Of a stretch of DNA of 64,000 nucleotides, positions 2,191 through 62,220 are shown piece by piece. The DNA is from Escherichia phage vB_EcoM_G53. The notes beneath the pieces are model-generated. The model was not told where the DNA came from, did no database searches, and was given only the letters and a program-made list of their open reading frames with translations. The position numbers and the translations under genes were made by a program. The stretch lies in the sequence record MK327943.1, one strand, 5' to 3'. The stretch's first letter is position 1; every line of letters starts with the position of its first letter.

Positions 2191-3759
2191 ATGACTACTA
2201 TCAAAACTAAAGCTCAGCTCGTAGACAAATGGAAAGAACTGCTGGAAGGTGAAGGCCTGCCGGAAATCGCTAATAGCAAGCAGGCTATTATCGCTAAAAT
2301 CTTCGAAAACCAGGAAAAAGATTTCGAAGTATCCCCTGAATATAAAGACGAGAAAATCGCTCAGGCATTTGGTTCTTTCTTGACCGAAGCTGAAATTGGT
2401 GGTGACCATGGTTATAATGCTCAGAACATCGCAGCAGGTCAAACCTCTGGTGCAGTAACCCAAATTGGGCCGGCAGTTATGGGTATGGTTCGTCGTGCTA
2501 TTCCTAATCTGATCGCCTTTGATATTTGTGGTGTTCAGCCTATGAACAGCCCGACCGGTCAGGTATTTGCTCTCCGTGCAGTATATGGTAAAGACCCTAT
2601 CGCTGCTGGCGCTAAAGAAGCTTTCCATCCGATGTATGCCCCAGACGCGATGTTCTCTGGTCAGGGTGCTGCTAAGAAATTCCCAGCTCTGGCTGCTGAC
2701 ACTACTACTGTTGTAGGTGATATCTATACTCACTTCTTCCAAGAAACTGGTACTGTATATCTGCAAGCTTCTGCTATCGTAACACTTGATTCTGGTGCAA
2801 CTGATGCAGCTAAATTAGATGCAGAAGTTAAGAAACAAATGGAAGCTGGTGCACTGGTAGAAATCGCTGAAGGTATGGCTACTTCTATCGCTGAACTCCA
2901 GGAAGGTTTCAACGGTTCTACCGATAACCCATGGAATGAAATGGGCTTCCGTATCGACAAACAAGTTATTGAAGCTAAATCTCGTCAGCTGAAAGCAGCT
3001 TACTCCATAGAATTGGCACAAGACCTCCGTGCAGTACACGGTATGGATGCTGATGCTGAACTGAGCGGTATTCTGGCTACAGAAATTATGCTAGAAATCA
3101 ACCGTGAAGTTGTTGATTGGATTAACTACTCTGCACAGGTTGGTAAATCTGGTATGACCCTGACTCCGGGTTCTAAAGCTGGTGTATTTGACTTCCAGGA
3201 CCCGATTGATATCCGTGGTGCTCGTTGGGCCGGTGAAAGCTTTAAATCTCTGTTGTTCCAGATTGATAAAGAAGCAGTTGAAATTGCTCGTCAAACCGGT
3301 CGTGGTGAAGGTAACTTCATTATCGCTTCCCGTAACGTAGTTAACGTACTGGCTTCAGTTGATACTGGTATTTCTTACGCTGCACAGGGTCTGGCTTCTG
3401 GTTTTAATACCGACACTACTAAGTCTGTATTTGCCGGTGTACTTGGTGGTAAATACCGCGTATACATCGACCAGTATGCTAAACAGGATTACTTCACCGT
3501 TGGTTACAAAGGCGCTAACGAAATGGATGCAGGTATTTACTATGCTCCTTACGTTGCACTTACCCCACTGCGTGGTTCCGATCCTAAGAACTTCCAGCCG
3601 GTAATGGGCTTTAAAACTCGTTATGGTATCGGTGTTAACCCGTTTGCTGAAAGTTCCCTGCAGGCTCCAGGTGCTCGCATCCAGTCCGGTATGCCGTCTA
3701 TCCTGAACAGCCTTGGTAAGAATGCTTACTTCCGCCGTGTATATGTAAAAGGCATCTAA
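2191..3759 (+). CDS. 23: Major capsid protein gp23
   Basis: 522 aa, near-identical to recalled T4 gp23 (521 aa) over its whole length. Confidence 0.98.
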   Translation: MTTIKTKAQLVDKWKELLEGEGLPEIANSKQAIIAKIFENQEKDFEVSPEYKDEKIAQAFGSFLTEAEIGGDHGYNAQNIAAGQTSGAVTQIGPAVMGMVRRAIPNLIAFDICGVQPMNSPTGQVFALRAVYGKDPIAAGAKEAFHPMYAPDAMFSGQGAAKKFPALAADTTTVVGDIYTHFFQETGTVYLQASAIVTLDSGATDAAKLDAEVKKQMEAGALVEIAEGMATSIAELQEGFNGSTDNPWNEMGFRIDKQVIEAKSRQLKAAYSIELAQDLRAVHGMDADAELSGILATEIMLEINREVVDWINYSAQVGKSGMTLTPGSKAGVFDFQDPIDIRGARWAGESFKSLLFQIDKEAVEIARQTGRGEGNFIIASRNVVNVLASVDTGISYAAQGLASGFNTDTTKSVFAGVLGGKYRVYIDQYAKQDYFTVGYKGANEMDAGIYYAPYVALTPLRGSDPKNFQPVMGFKTRYGIGVNPFAESSLQAPGARIQSGMPSILNSLGKNAYFRRVYVKGI

Positions 3760-3783
3760 TCTTAATTGATTAAATCTTATTTT

Positions 3784-3801
3784 GGGAGACTTCGGTCTCC
3801 C
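3784..3801. terminator. Bidirectional intrinsic terminator hairpin GGGAGAC-UUCG-GUCUCCC
   Basis: Perfect 7-bp GC-rich stem with tetraloop, T-runs on both sides, between convergent genes. Confidence 0.65.
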
Positions 3802-3811
3802 ATTTTTGGTT

Positions 3812-4081
3812 TTATTTCTGTGCAATTTCGATGTAAGTTTTCAAAATATTTTGCCAATTAGGCATACCTTCTTGGACATATGCCGGAGAACCGTCTTTGT
3901 TTTTGAATGATGCAAGTTTATCAGTGGCCCAATAACCTTTAGCTCGAGCTTCAGAATCAACTTTCATCCATACTTTGTTGAAGGCATTACCATTAACTTT
4001 TGCACCATATTTTTCTACTAACTTAACTGCTTCAGCTTCCAGAACTTTTAAAGTATCTCGTAAGAAACGTGCTTTAGTCAT
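3812..4081 (-). CDS. Hypothetical 89-aa protein on opposite strand between genes 23 and 24 (position of segD in T4; not a GIY-YIG protein)
   Basis: Clean ORF with GAGGAG RBS and its own upstream early-type promoter; no recognisable domain. Confidence 0.6.
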   Translation of the reverse strand: MTKARFLRDTLKVLEAEAVKLVEKYGAKVNGNAFNKVWMKVDSEARAKGYWATDKLASFKNKDGSPAYVQEGMPNWQNILKTYIEIAQK

Positions 4082-4110
4082 TTTGTTTACTCCTCTGTAG
4101 TTGATAAGTC

Positions 4111-4141
4111 TATAGTATCACATACCAAATACGTTGTAAAC
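4111..4141 (-). promoter_or_regulatory. Early (sigma70-type) promoter, minus strand, for ORF 3812-4081
   Basis: GTTTAC -35 and TACTAT -10-like element with ~17-nt spacing. Confidence 0.45.
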
Positions 4142-4147
4142 AATCTT

Positions 4148-4155
4148 TATAAATA
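4148..4155 (+). promoter_or_regulatory. T4-type late promoter TATAAATA (gene 24)
   Basis: Exact motif upstream of gene 24. Confidence 0.6.
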
Positions 4156-4182
4156 ATCTATATCACATAAGGAAAAAATGCA

Positions 4183-5466
4183 ATGAGTAAAATCCAAAAA
4201 TTATTGCGTGAATCTACAACGTCTACTAGCAACTCAATTGGTCGCCCAAATCTCGTTGCTTTGACTCGCGCTACGACTAAATTAATATATTCTGACATTG
4301 TAGCAACACAAAGAACTAATCAACCTGTTGCTGCTTTTTATGGTATCAAATATCTTAACCCGGATAATGAATTCACATTTAAAACCGGTGCTACTTATGC
4401 TGGCGAAGTTGGATATGTAGACCGAGAAAAAATTACTGAACTCACAGAAGAATCAAAAGTCACACTAAATAAAGGTGATTTTTTCAAATATAATAATATC
4501 GTCTATAAAGTGTTAGAAGATACACCATTTGCAGATATTCAAGAAAGTGATCTAGAATTAGCTCTTCAGATTGCAGTCGTTCATTTAAAGGTACGGTTAT
4601 TTTCAGATGCAGCGGTAACAAGCAAATTTGAAAGCTCTGATAGCGAAATTTCTGATGCAAGATTCCAGATTAATAAATGGCAAACTTCAGTCAAATCTCG
4701 CAAACTTAAAACTGGTCTCACGGTTGAATTAGCGCAAGATTTGGAAGCGAATGGATTTGATGCCCCTAACTTCTTAGAAGATTTGCTTGCTACTGAAATG
4801 GCTGATGAAATTAATAAAGATATTCTTCAGTCTTTAATTACTGTATCGAAACGTTATAAAGTTACTGGAATTACTGACACCGGATTTATTGACTTGAGCT
4901 ATGCATCCGCTCCAGAAGCAGGTCGTTCATTATATCGAATGGTGTGTGAAATGGTATCACACATTCAAAAAGAGACAACTTATACTGCAACGTTTTGTGT
5001 AGCCTCAGCTCGTGCAGCTGCTATTCTTGCTGCTTCTGGTTGGTTAAAACATAAGCCAGAAGATGACAAGTATCTTTCACAAAATGCTTATGGATTCTTG
5101 GCAAATGGATTACCTCTTTACTGCGATACCAACAGTCCGTTAGATTATGTTATTGTGGGTGTTGTAGAAAATATCGGCGAAAAAGAAATTGTAGGGTCCA
5201 TCTTTTATGCTCCATACACTGAAGGAGTAGATTTAGATGACCCGGAACATGTCGGTGCATTTAAAGTTGTAGTTGATCCGGAAAGTTTGCAACCGTCTAT
5301 CGGATTATTGGTTAGATATGCTTTATCAGCAAATCCTTACACAGTAGCAAAAGACGAAAAAGAAGCGAGAATAATTGATGGCGGGGACATGGATAAAATG
5401 GCGGGACGTTCAGATTTGTCTGTTTTATTAGGTGTTAAGCTACCAAAAATTATTGTTGATGAATAA
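4183..5466 (+). CDS. 24: Capsid vertex protein gp24
   Basis: 427 aa, near-identical to recalled T4 gp24; TATAAATA late promoter upstream. Confidence 0.97.
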   Translation: MSKIQKLLRESTTSTSNSIGRPNLVALTRATTKLIYSDIVATQRTNQPVAAFYGIKYLNPDNEFTFKTGATYAGEVGYVDREKITELTEESKVTLNKGDFFKYNNIVYKVLEDTPFADIQESDLELALQIAVVHLKVRLFSDAAVTSKFESSDSEISDARFQINKWQTSVKSRKLKTGLTVELAQDLEANGFDAPNFLEDLLATEMADEINKDILQSLITVSKRYKVTGITDTGFIDLSYASAPEAGRSLYRMVCEMVSHIQKETTYTATFCVASARAAAILAASGWLKHKPEDDKYLSQNAYGFLANGLPLYCDTNSPLDYVIVGVVENIGEKEIVGSIFYAPYTEGVDLDDPEHVGAFKVVVDPESLQPSIGLLVRYALSANPYTVAKDEKEARIIDGGDMDKMAGRSDLSVLLGVKLPKIIVDE

Positions 5467-5472
5467 AACAAA

Positions 5473-5488
5473 GGGACCGTAAGGTCCC
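5473..5488. terminator. Bidirectional terminator hairpin GGGACC-GUAA-GGUCCC
   Basis: Between convergent gene 24 and rnlB. Confidence 0.65.
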
Positions 5489-5495
5489 TTTTTCG

Positions 5496-6494
5496 TTATG
5501 ATACTAATTCAATCCATGCAGGACGCAGAACATCTTGCACCATTCGGACTAATTCTTTCTTAACAAGATTCGGATTATCAGATGATGTTAATACAATACC
5601 TTCGCGAGAAGTTTCTTCCAGAATATCTTGAACAGTCAATCCCATCACTTTGCCAAAATCTTTTGGCGTTACAGCACCAATCTTAGAAATCACATTATTA
5701 ATACGATTTAATGTAACATAACAAGCTAGAACATCAAGCAAGTTTTTGTCAGTTTCGGTTAATGGAACCTGAGTTTTAATAGGCTTATCAGACTTTTTCT
5801 TTTCACTGAATTTAGAGTTCTTGCACTTAATAGCTACACGAGTACCGTTTGGCAACCATTTAGGGAAACAAGGCTTCAGAACATAACCTTCTGCCGTATT
5901 ATCGCCAATAACATTAGCATCAAATACGCAATTATTTGCTTCGACAAGGTCTTCCGATGCCGTGGCGTTATAAGCGGCTAAAACGGAATCAAGGTCATTT
6001 GGAATCATGATAAGAGAATCAAATGTTCCACGACCAAGCATTGGTGCCATTTTAAAACCGAATTCATTACAGAAATCTTGCATTTCGTAATCGGTCAAAT
6101 ACGTATTATCACCACTTTCTGTATTGATAAGGATATCGAACACATAAAAATCTTTTTCACCGTAGTCAACACCTTTCTGGATTCCACCACCAGCGAATTC
6201 ACCAAAGACCTGATATGATACAGCTCGAGAACTACCCATTACTTCTTGAACGTTTTTAATAGCCTTATCATACTTCTTGAGTACAATTTCATAACCATAA
6301 AAATCTTCTGCTGGAAGAATAGGGCCTGTGCGCTTGGCGCATGTGACGTTGTCACGTTCAATTATTAACGAGAAGTTAGTCCCATGGATTTTCTCACGTG
6401 CTACCCAAACACCAGTAGTCAAACCATTAGTGTAGAGTTTTTCAATAAACTTAGAGTTGTAGTGGTTTTCAAGACTGCTGTATTTCTTAAACAT
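5496..6494 (-). CDS. rnlB: RNA ligase 2 (Rnl2)
   Basis: 332 aa; strong match to recalled T4 Rnl2 ([21 protein letters not shown]..., KIHGTNFS ligase motif I). Confidence 0.95.
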
Positions 6495-7157: not shown

Positions 7158-8576
7158 TTATGGATATGTATAGATGATACCAGTTTCCAAAGCAGTTTTA
7201 TGGATGATGTATCCATTACGTGATTCTTGAACATCAACTTCCGGATAGTCTTTCATCATCTTCTGAAGAGTGTAACGATGCAGGTAGTATTTACTATCTG
7301 GATCTTCAGTTTTCCAATCTTTACCTTCTTCAGTCATTTTTTGGATTTCATCCATAACCCACCATCCGCACCAGATGTAAGCTGAAGTACGATGTGGAAG
7401 AGGATGAACATAAGGTAATTCACCTTCTGGTTCCGGAGCAACTTTATCAGTTACCTGAACTTGACCTTCTGCTGTAATAGTTTTGCTATCGTAATCAGTT
7501 GCAGTAATAGTTGCAGTAACTTCAATAGTTTGACTTCCAATAGATGAGGTATCAACGGTATATACATTAGTTGACCCTTCTACAGGAGAAGAATCTTTCT
7601 TCCATGAATACTCGATTTGCGCTTCTTCTGGAGCATCAGTGACATTAGCGGTAAATGTAGCCGAAGCATCTTGCTGAACGTTAATAGAAGGAGGAGTCAA
7701 TGTAACCCGTGGATTCATTGTCTTCTTATTAACCGTTAATGATACTTCATTCGAAGTAACTTCCTTTGCATCATAATCTGTCGCGGTTACTTGGGCTACA
7801 CATTTAATTCTTTTTACTCCACTTGTAGTCGGAGTATAGCTAAATGTAGAGTTAGTTTCTCCACCAACCTGTGAATCATCTACATACCACTGATACGTAG
7901 CAGACGCTCCAACCGGTTGAGAAGCTAAGGCAGCAGTAAATTGAACTGGGGTTCCAATTACTCCGGCTGAAGGACTATTGGGAGTTACTGCCAACGTAGT
8001 TGTCTGTGTCTTTTTATTAACAGTCAGTGACACTTCATTAGAAGTAACGCTTAGTGCGTCATAATCTGTTGCGGTTACTTGAGCCACACACTTAATTCTT
8101 TTTACCCCGCTTTCGGCAGGAGTGTAATTGAACGTAGCGTTAGTTGCTTCGCCAACAGGAGAATCGTCTACATACCATTGATAAGTAGCGTTTGCGCCTG
8201 ATGGCTGCGAAGCTAAAGCGGCGGTAAATTCAATAGCTGTTCCTATTACTCCAGCGTCAGGGCTATTAGGAGTTATAGCCAGAGTAGTTGTCTGAGTTTT
8301 ATTTTTAACTGTGATAGTTGCAGTAGCTTCTGCTGTTTCAGCTTCAGCGTCTGGAACTGTATTTGCTGCAACTACTTTAATAGTCTTTTGACCGGCAGGT
8401 CCTTTTAGTACATAACTAAAAGTTGCTTCAGCTCCATCTTGTGGAACATCATCCACAGTCCAAGCATATGTAATAGTTCCACCTTCAGCCTGACCACTAG
8501 GTGTGGCAGTAAACTGCTGGGTCTGTCCTATAACTCCAGTAGGTGTTTTAGGAGTTATATTAACTGTAAAAGCCAT
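7158..8576 (-). CDS. hoc: Hoc, highly immunogenic outer capsid protein with four Ig-like domains
   Basis: 472 aa, Ig-like repeats with YQWYVDD motifs, position hoc-inh; T4 Hoc is 376 aa; contains 96-aa internal tandem repeat. Confidence 0.85.
   Translation of the reverse strand: MAFTVNITPKTPTGVIGQTQQFTATPSGQAEGGTITYAWTVDDVPQDGAEATFSYVLKGPAGQKTIKVVAANTVPDAEAETAEATATITVKNKTQTTTLAITPNSPDAGVIGTAIEFTAALASQPSGANATYQWYVDDSPVGEATNATFNYTPAESGVKRIKCVAQVTATDYDALSVTSNEVSLTVNKKTQTTTLAVTPNSPSAGVIGTPVQFTAALASQPVGASATYQWYVDDSQVGGETNSTFSYTPTTSGVKRIKCVAQVTATDYDAKEVTSNEVSLTVNKKTMNPRVTLTPPSINVQQDASATFTANVTDAPEEAQIEYSWKKDSSPVEGSTNVYTVDTSSIGSQTIEVTATITATDYDSKTITAEGQVQVTDKVAPEPEGELPYVHPLPHRTSAYIWCGWWVMDEIQKMTEEGKDWKTEDPDSKYYLHRYTLQKMMKDYPEVDVQESRNGYIIHKTALETGIIYTYP
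7725..8300. repeat. Tandem ~288-bp repeat (2 copies) encoding duplicated Ig-like domain within hoc
   Basis: Protein residues 93-188 and 189-284 are ~85-90% identical (KTQTTTLA.TPNSP...SLTVNKKT). Confidence 0.85.
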
Positions 8577-19383: not shown

Positions 19384-19400
19384 GGGAGACGTTGTCTCCC
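19384..19400. terminator. Bidirectional terminator hairpin after gene 54
   Basis: GGGAGAC-GUU-GUCUCCC flanked by A/T runs. Confidence 0.6.
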
Positions 19401-27159: not shown

Positions 27160-27177
27160 GGGAGACCGAAGTCTCCC
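27160..27177 (-). terminator. Terminator hairpin after 59-aa basic ORF
   Basis: GGGAGAC-CGAA-GUCUCCC followed by UUUUGUG on minus strand. Confidence 0.55.
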
Positions 27178-42436: not shown

Positions 42437-42454
42437 GGGAGACCGAAGTCTCCC
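42437..42454 (-). terminator. Gene 32 terminator hairpin
   Basis: GGGAGAC-CGAA-GUCUCCC followed by U-run on minus strand. Confidence 0.6.
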
Positions 42455-50760: not shown

Positions 50761-50778
50761 GGGAGACTTCGGTCTCCC
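50761..50778 (+). terminator. Terminator hairpin after gene 35
   Basis: GGGAGAC-UUCG-GUCUCCC + AUUUUUG. Confidence 0.6.
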
Positions 50779-62152: not shown

Positions 62153-62220
62153 GATGTTATCCTCTTTTAGATAGGACTACTATATCATAGTCCTACTTAG
62201 TTGTAAACACTTTTGTGAAA

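Follow-up and report, generated by a model that had tools for sequence, protein, structure and literature searches.

What is a small ORF doing on the opposite strand between the genes for two capsid proteins, and is it a gene with a function of its own? The question is raised by an ORF of 89 codons in Escherichia phage vB_EcoM_G53 (MK327943.1). We followed it up in a stretch of 64,000 nucleotides from this record, which is the whole of the DNA analyzed and is referred to here as the window. The ORF was compared with its relatives in other phages for coding potential, transcription signals, genomic position, and predicted structure, and the resulting picture was set against other explanations for its presence.

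Setting between genes 23 and 24

The ORF map and the annotation of matching records bear out the position given in an earlier note on this DNA. The ORF lies in a slot whose left flank is gene 23, coding for the major capsid protein (2191..3759, plus strand), and whose right flank is gene 24, coding for the capsid vertex protein (4183..5466, plus strand). Gp24 of the window and gp24 of T4 have 95% protein identity. The region from 3700 to 4250 is 100% identical to Escherichia phage ChristianSchoenbein. In all, 91 phage records match it at 99% identity or more, and the records listed are Mosigvirus (RB69-like).

Two further features of the head region were recorded. Dhakavirus, Gaprivervirus, and some metagenomic relatives have two tandem gp24 paralogs that are ~70% and 55% identical to gp24 of the window. 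Gelderlandvirus STML-198 also has two tandem capsid vertex genes, grouped here by their annotation. The Hoc homolog of the window (7158-8576, minus strand) has 472 aa with repeated Ig-like units. T4 Hoc has 376 aa, and the excess corresponds to roughly one Ig-like domain.

The ORF and its protein family

The 89-aa ORF is present on the minus strand at 3812..4081, starts with MTKARFLRDTLKVLEAEAVKLVEKYGAKVNG, and matches the sequence quoted earlier. The earlier label of "orphan" does not apply, since the ORF has its own PHROG and is found in about 240 phage records (239 by tblastn). The match to the phrog_6003 profile (E = 2.1e-45) covers residues 1–89 against 90 profile positions, and all 20 aligned relatives match the same profile. 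Protein identity exceeds 95% in about 117 Mosigvirus records. The annotation of phage PhAPEC2 describes its copy as similar to RB69ORF188c, and more than 200 genomes already have the gene annotated as hypothetical. We refer to its relatives as the RB69ORF188c/189c family.

Members of the family range from 83 to 93 aa. An exhaustive HMM profile search returned only nine matches among 1.84 billion representative proteins, indicating that the family is small and restricted to phages. Two of the nine, giant proteins of 1347 and 3916 aa with 9–11 matched stretches, were rejected as Ig-like repeat proteins with additive noise; each of their repeats weakly resembles the beta-hairpin region of the family, with an hhalign probability of 0.19%. 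One metagenomic homolog (P0006; 90 aa, from a 173-kb contig) carries the JGI name "NADPH-dependent curcumin reductase CurA," which is evidently a mis-annotation.

Seven positions are invariant in the family alignment (M1, K3, F6, G31, N32, N35, and Q70), and three more are nearly so (N30, A45, and S57). Ratios of dN/dS in unsaturated ortholog pairs range from 0.04 to 0.14, including WG01 and VR5 (dN 0.024, dS 0.44) and ABPH49 and a metagenomic relative (dN 0.015, dS 0.40). Ratios this low are expected of a functional protein, and these substitution patterns show purifying selection on the protein encoded at 3812..4081. This protein diverges much faster than those of the flanking genes (33–62% versus 70–84% identity). 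Orthologs from Dhakavirus and Gaprivervirus are 33–37% identical to the small protein of the window, compared with 84% for gp23 and about 70% for gp24. The window protein has a pI of 9.6 and a net charge of +5.5. Across the family, pI ranges from 8.0 to 9.9 (above 9.1 in 19 of 20 members) and net charge from +0.8 to +7.6. Family members are hydrophilic, and a hydrophobic segment is absent.

These data bear directly on whether the ORF is a chance reading frame or a dead remnant with no function. Spurious ORFs of 60–190 aa on the wrong strand are numerous in the AT-rich window, and the RB69 reference genome has this ORF in two pieces. Neither point withstands a coding sequence that is under purifying selection, conserved at 30% to 100% identity over four phage backgrounds, preceded by a conserved promoter and ribosome-binding site, and predicted to fold with high confidence. 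The reading is refuted by the family alignment, the dN/dS ratios, and the AlphaFold fold, and we give it almost no credence.

Transcription and translation signals

The strong GAGGAG ribosome-binding site described earlier can be read from the sequence at 4095..4090 (minus strand), 8 nt ahead of the ATG. GGAG is kept at the same place in orthologous loci. A scan places a T4-type early (sigma-70) promoter at 4112..4141 on the minus strand, with both of the elements that the earlier note had named, GTTTAC (4141..4136) and TACTAT (4117..4112), and an extended TG (4120..4119). Read as a sigma-70 promoter, the hexamer TTTACA is separated from TACTAT by a 17-nt spacer.

This promoter is one of a set. 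The minus strand of the window has 19 matches to the pattern GTTTAC-N17-19-TAnnnT and the plus strand has none, compared with 3.7 sites on both strands together in base shuffles. Most of the 19 sites, including that of the ORF, share gTGaTACTAT, the leader AGACYTATCAAC, and a GAGGA Shine-Dalgarno sequence before an ATG. By this shared architecture, the ORF's promoter is shown to belong to the phage's own early-promoter family, where an early promoter is a match to the consensus and not a mapped start site. The 19 sites span positions 62208 to 4141. A few (18951, 45854, 58216, and 6983) fall within coding sequences and could have arisen by chance.

The late promoter of gene 24, TATAAATA, can be read at 4148..4155 on the plus strand and is conserved in all relatives. 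A gap of 6 bp separates it from the -35 element of the early promoter, and the two promoters thus stand back to back. Counterparts of both were predicted in RB69 by Nolan et al. 2006, the early one as Pe:109605 (HMM score 29.9) and the late one as Pl:109573 (PMC1524935). The arrangement of the early promoter (GTTTAC, ~18 nt, TG-n-TAYTAT) is conserved in Dhakavirus, Gaprivervirus, and metagenomic relatives, where the protein is only 30–38% identical. Two homologs (loci L015 and L016) have sigma-70-like matches ~50–60 nt upstream that might be promoters; the counts of such matches are not above those in shuffles.

An early promoter is not what would be expected of a head-associated protein, either an internal DNA-bound protein injected with the genome or a helper of capsid assembly. 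Such a role is suggested by the position between genes 23 and 24, by the small size and basic charge that the protein has in common with T4 internal proteins, and by weak matches of 3 of 20 members to phrog_8765, "internal virion protein" (best E = 0.0015). The only trace of a late promoter on the minus strand is an imperfect TATAAAGA, however, and the alignment has no conserved N-terminal capsid-targeting motif or LxE cleavage motif; for these reasons the phrog_8765 matches were not taken to indicate an internal protein. In addition, rnlB, 24.2, and 24.3 are non-structural minus-strand genes in the same head cluster, and homologs of the ORF elsewhere are found among small non-structural genes. 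A role in the head is thus very unlikely. Taken with its signals, the ORF is very probably a real early accessory gene.

The hairpin downstream of gene 23

The gene 23 transcript ends at an intrinsic terminator (3783..3802, plus strand) made of a GGGAGAC-UUCG-GUCUCCC hairpin and a U-run, which the scan called on the plus strand only. The earlier note had taken this element to be bidirectional. That description fails for the window, where the T-run follows the hairpin on the plus strand only and the minus strand reads AAAATAAGATTT. RNA from the minus strand does fold the same hairpin (-13.5 kcal/mol), followed by AAAAUAAGAUUU. The scan of the window found no minus-strand intrinsic terminator after the ORF. 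In RB69, TransTerm likewise called the gene 23 hairpin as "+" only and the terminator between gene 24 and rnlB on both strands (PMC1524935). The Gaprivervirus VR20 ortholog has T-runs on both sides of the hairpin and qualifies as bidirectional.

The GGGAGAC-(UUCG)-GUCUCCC hairpin occurs five times in the window (3784-3801, 19384-19400, 27160-27177, 42437-42454, and 50761-50778), the copy at 19384 being a variant with a 3-nt loop. The orientation of each copy matches the strand that it terminates. Those that end minus-strand units (27160 and 42437) are inverted, with the UUCG loop and the T-run on the minus strand.

Because the early unit has no minus-strand terminator of its own, its transcript would read through into gene 23, and this antisense RNA would probably continue until stopped by Rho or RNases. 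In T4, anti-late RNA is made early in infection. The early promoter might be the functional element, producing an antisense RNA over gene 23 that dampens untimely expression of the capsid gene; the ORF would be a leader that happens to be translated. In addition to the expected read-through, this would account for why, across genera, the promoter has changed less than the protein and why T4 has a similar promoter ahead of segD. It would not account for dN/dS ratios of 0.04–0.14 and a conserved fold, both of which reflect selection on the protein itself. Moreover, homologs in other phages do not face a capsid gene, the VR20 hairpin has a T-run in the direction of the ORF that would stop read-through, and genera with an empty slot lack such a promoter. 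We consider a purely antisense function improbable.

Distribution, mobility, and linkage to segD

Orthologs occupy the same slot and strand in Mosigvirus, Gaprivervirus (VR20), Dhakavirus (WG01 and 04086), and metagenomic T4-like contigs, with identities of 30–38% across genera. The gap between genes 23 and 24 is only 80–95 bp in Tequatrovirus AR1, Moonvirus Merlin, Jiaodavirus 5N, and Gelderlandvirus STML-198. These empty slots hold just the terminator followed by TATAAATA and have no early promoter. Since the terminator adjoins TATAAATA in these genera, the cassette of promoter and ORF was inserted exactly between the two elements. Krischvirus JSE has two small ORFs on the same strand in this slot.

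Homologs were also identified in several unrelated phage backgrounds, where they keep company with small co-oriented genes. Acinetobacter phage ABPH49 (Vequintavirinae, 150 kb) has one within a run of small co-oriented hypothetical genes, and metagenomic contigs similar to ABPH49 also carry homologs. Another homolog is found in a contig where its neighbors are T7 0.6-like and PcfJ-like genes, and another lies next to tail genes in a siphovirus-like contig with a distant relationship to Serratia phages. Beside one homolog is an unannotated stretch of ~80 nt (L015:5657-5737) that is 85–89% identical to unannotated DNA of 84-kb Erwinia phages and may be a tRNA or small RNA.

T4 carries segD at the 23/24 spot, as the earlier note had it, and segD too is on the opposite strand. 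The same note proposed that the ORF is present instead of segD. The slot of the window does lack segD, but the two genes are not alternatives, as they occur in tandem in Dhakavirus 04086 and Mosigvirus AV109. In 04086 (OR842557), an unannotated ORF of 223 aa with a GIY-YIG domain (L004:3271-3942), 57% identical to T4 SegD, is located between the small gene and gene 23 on the same strand as the small gene. The 04086 record annotates the major head protein at 4002..5111, and the ORF there runs 4002..5561.

AV109 (OR352939; L031:1468-2397) has the same tandem of small gene and segD. Identity to the window is 96% at the 3' end of its gene 23 and 98.7% at the 5' end of its gene 24. Its promoter and leader are 98% identical to those of 04086 and only ~75% identical to those of the window, and its small ORF has 96% nucleotide identity with that of 04086. 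A Dhakavirus-type cassette between Mosigvirus flanks indicates that the whole cassette, comprising promoter, ORF, and segD, was exchanged between genera. Homing by seg genes in T4 co-converts flanking markers. Homing-associated co-conversion is probably how the AV109 swap came about, and it would explain the linkage of the ORF with segD.

The same linkage could mean that the ORF serves SegD as a helper, an immunity determinant, or a homing target. SegD is directly downstream on the same strand in 04086 and AV109, an allele of the ORF moved with segD into a Mosigvirus, and segD occupies the same slot in T4. Co-conversion during homing is enough to explain these observations, however, and the two genes are readily found apart: most carriers of the ORF, the window included, have no segD, T4 has segD without the ORF, and homologs in unrelated phages have no GIY-YIG neighbor. 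A function tied to SegD therefore has little to recommend it.

The gene is not always intact. In the RB69 reference (NC_004928 109262-109540; L030:5263-5540), two indels, a +1 among clustered mismatches and a -1, split it into fragments of 41 aa (ORF188c) and 29 aa (ORF189c), representing either a pseudogene or old sequencing errors. Truncated versions are present in phages mogra and 310Ecol104PP. As read from these genomes, the gene is dispensable, at least in culture, with the proviso that the RB69 indels could be sequencing errors, and its loss in some isolates fits an accessory role. Together, the loci compared here show a cassette that is conserved in position in three Tevenvirinae genera, absent from others, and, as judged from AV109, exchanged between genera.

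Predicted fold and homology searches

AlphaFold2 with the 20-sequence alignment predicted a fold with a pLDDT of 94.1 and a pTM of 0.80. This run replaces an earlier one on seven sequences that had a pLDDT of 64.8 and missed the hairpin. The model consists of a helix at residues 3–25, a helix at 31–48, a beta-hairpin at 52–60/66–70, and a helix at 76–88. The independent BFVD model of a relative with 31% identity superposes on it with a TM score of 0.87.

Structure prediction had been suggested as a check on function. It yielded the confident fold but no match to solved structures, as the best hit of Foldseek against the PDB had an E value of 1.0. The BFVD fold search returned only a member of the family. 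By these searches of modeled and solved structures, the predicted fold is without a match among solved or predicted viral structures outside the family. Sequence searches were similar. Pfam gave only DUF4859 (E = 0.003, under its cut-off, in 2 of 20 members), NCBIfam and PADLOC gave no consistent family match, and searches of the PDB with the single sequence and the profile returned nothing. No Pfam GIY-YIG match was present in any of the 20 members, in agreement with the earlier statement that the ORF has no GIY-YIG features. Neither sequence nor fold matched a characterized anti-defense or host-takeover protein.

The basic charge is compatible with binding nucleic acid or an acidic protein surface. 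If the former, the protein could be a small nucleic-acid-binding factor for the phage's own early transcription, RNA stability, or DNA metabolism. A family that is basic throughout, a predicted architecture of two long helices and a beta-hairpin, and strong sequence conservation within genera would suit this role, in which the partner need not vary with the host. The fold matches no known nucleic-acid-binding fold, though. Most Tevenvirinae genera that have the same core machinery lack the gene, some viable isolates have it in broken form, and it also occurs in unrelated phages whose replication and transcription systems differ. We regard this explanation as unlikely, though the most plausible of the other readings considered.

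Proposed role

The reading that we prefer is directed at the host, in line with the host-takeover or anti-defense factor suggested in the earlier note. Host RNA polymerase would transcribe the cassette immediately on infection, and the protein would be made in the first minutes. The early promoter and the strong ribosome-binding site would drive production of a soluble, basic protein of 89 residues (10 kDa). Because it is too small and motif-poor for an enzyme, it presumably acts by stoichiometric binding, and its target may be an acidic host protein, a defense component, or a nucleic acid. The resulting role in host takeover or counter-defense would be of benefit only on some hosts.

Two observations count against parts of this proposal. 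An acute arms race would not be expected to leave identity above 95% within Mosigvirus. DNA-mimic anti-restriction proteins carry the opposite charge, and a protein of this type (Ocr, Arn, or ArdA) was rejected because the family is basic rather than acidic and has no structural match. As a whole, the statement that the locus is a mobile accessory cassette for an early-expressed, dispensable binding protein used in host takeover or counter-defense seems to us about evenly balanced between right and wrong, based on comparative genomics and structure prediction. Its functional component, a binder directed at the host, falls just short of that balance. A bolder version is possible but doubtful, namely that the members of phrog_6003 are a novel group of early effectors whose basic helix-helix-beta-hairpin-helix fold resembles no solved structure. 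They would act by neutralizing one particular host defense or an essential factor of the host, and their alleles would move between T-even genera by hitch-hiking on SegD homing in the 23/24 slot.

Should the protein prove to act in counter-defense or host takeover, the catalog of phage effectors would gain a small fold that has been modeled with confidence. If the proposal is true, the contents of this slot in the capsid cluster (the small gene, segD, both, or nothing) would be shuffled between genera by homing-associated recombination.

Comparison with known systems

The same gene has been recorded under several names, including RB69ORF188c and RB69ORF189c (NP_861878 and NP_861879), PhAPEC2_170, and VR7ORF190c, all of phrog_6003. 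DNA of the RB69 locus is 98% identical to the window, with the frame split in the RB69 reference and intact in the window. We found no study in the literature on RB69ORF188c, phrog_6003, or the protein accessions, and none that gives a Mosigvirus transcriptome; matches to "ORF188c" in PMC1524935 are ORFs of 44RR and RB49, not RB69. A Mosigvirus screen with phage AV110 covered 45 early proteins and chose its candidates by homology to T4 early proteins, so this gene was excluded. The HIDEN-SEQ phages were T4, Bas37 (a Tequatrovirus close to T4), and Bas54, with no Mosigvirus. A motif of the family was absent from the supplements of accessory-gene screens, and the text of the T4 omics paper has no mention of segD or antisense RNA.

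The closest parallel in position is T4 segD. It shares the insertion point of the cassette, in between the terminator of gene 23 and the late promoter of gene 24, and is likewise on the opposite strand. It also has an early-type promoter (TTTACA-17-TG-TATTAT) of the same geometry, back to back with TATAAATA. The products differ, as SegD has 223 aa with a GIY-YIG domain, the window protein has 89 aa without one, and the two are unrelated.

The comparison to morons made in the earlier note is apt in part. Like the morons of temperate lambdoid phages, the cassette adds a small transcription unit, complete with promoter, between genes that are adjacent in relatives, and it is exchanged horizontally; it also brings its own ribosome-binding site and ORF. 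The features missing from this comparison are a terminator of its own and a compositional signature, the GC content of the gene being 35.6% compared with 37.9% for the window. Another difference is that the phage of the window is virulent, so that expression from a prophage does not arise, and the cassette is a stable syntenic resident in three genera.

Small effectors of other T4-like phages provide the nearest functional comparison. NrdC.1 (against Septu), Bas37_0203 (against Druantia III), and Emp/Gp94 (against MreBCD) are of the same size class as the window protein. Other features in common are predicted expression early in infection, the absence of known domains, folds that lack known relatives, and a patchy occurrence among Tevenvirinae. 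They have no sequence or structural similarity to the window protein. The gene is one of hundreds of uncharacterized small early genes of T-even phages, it has already been annotated, and its RB69 promoter was predicted in 2006. For functional screening it is a sensible candidate but not an outstanding one, and its kind is well known, as small accessory genes of the early class are familiar occupants of the variable slots in T-even genomes.
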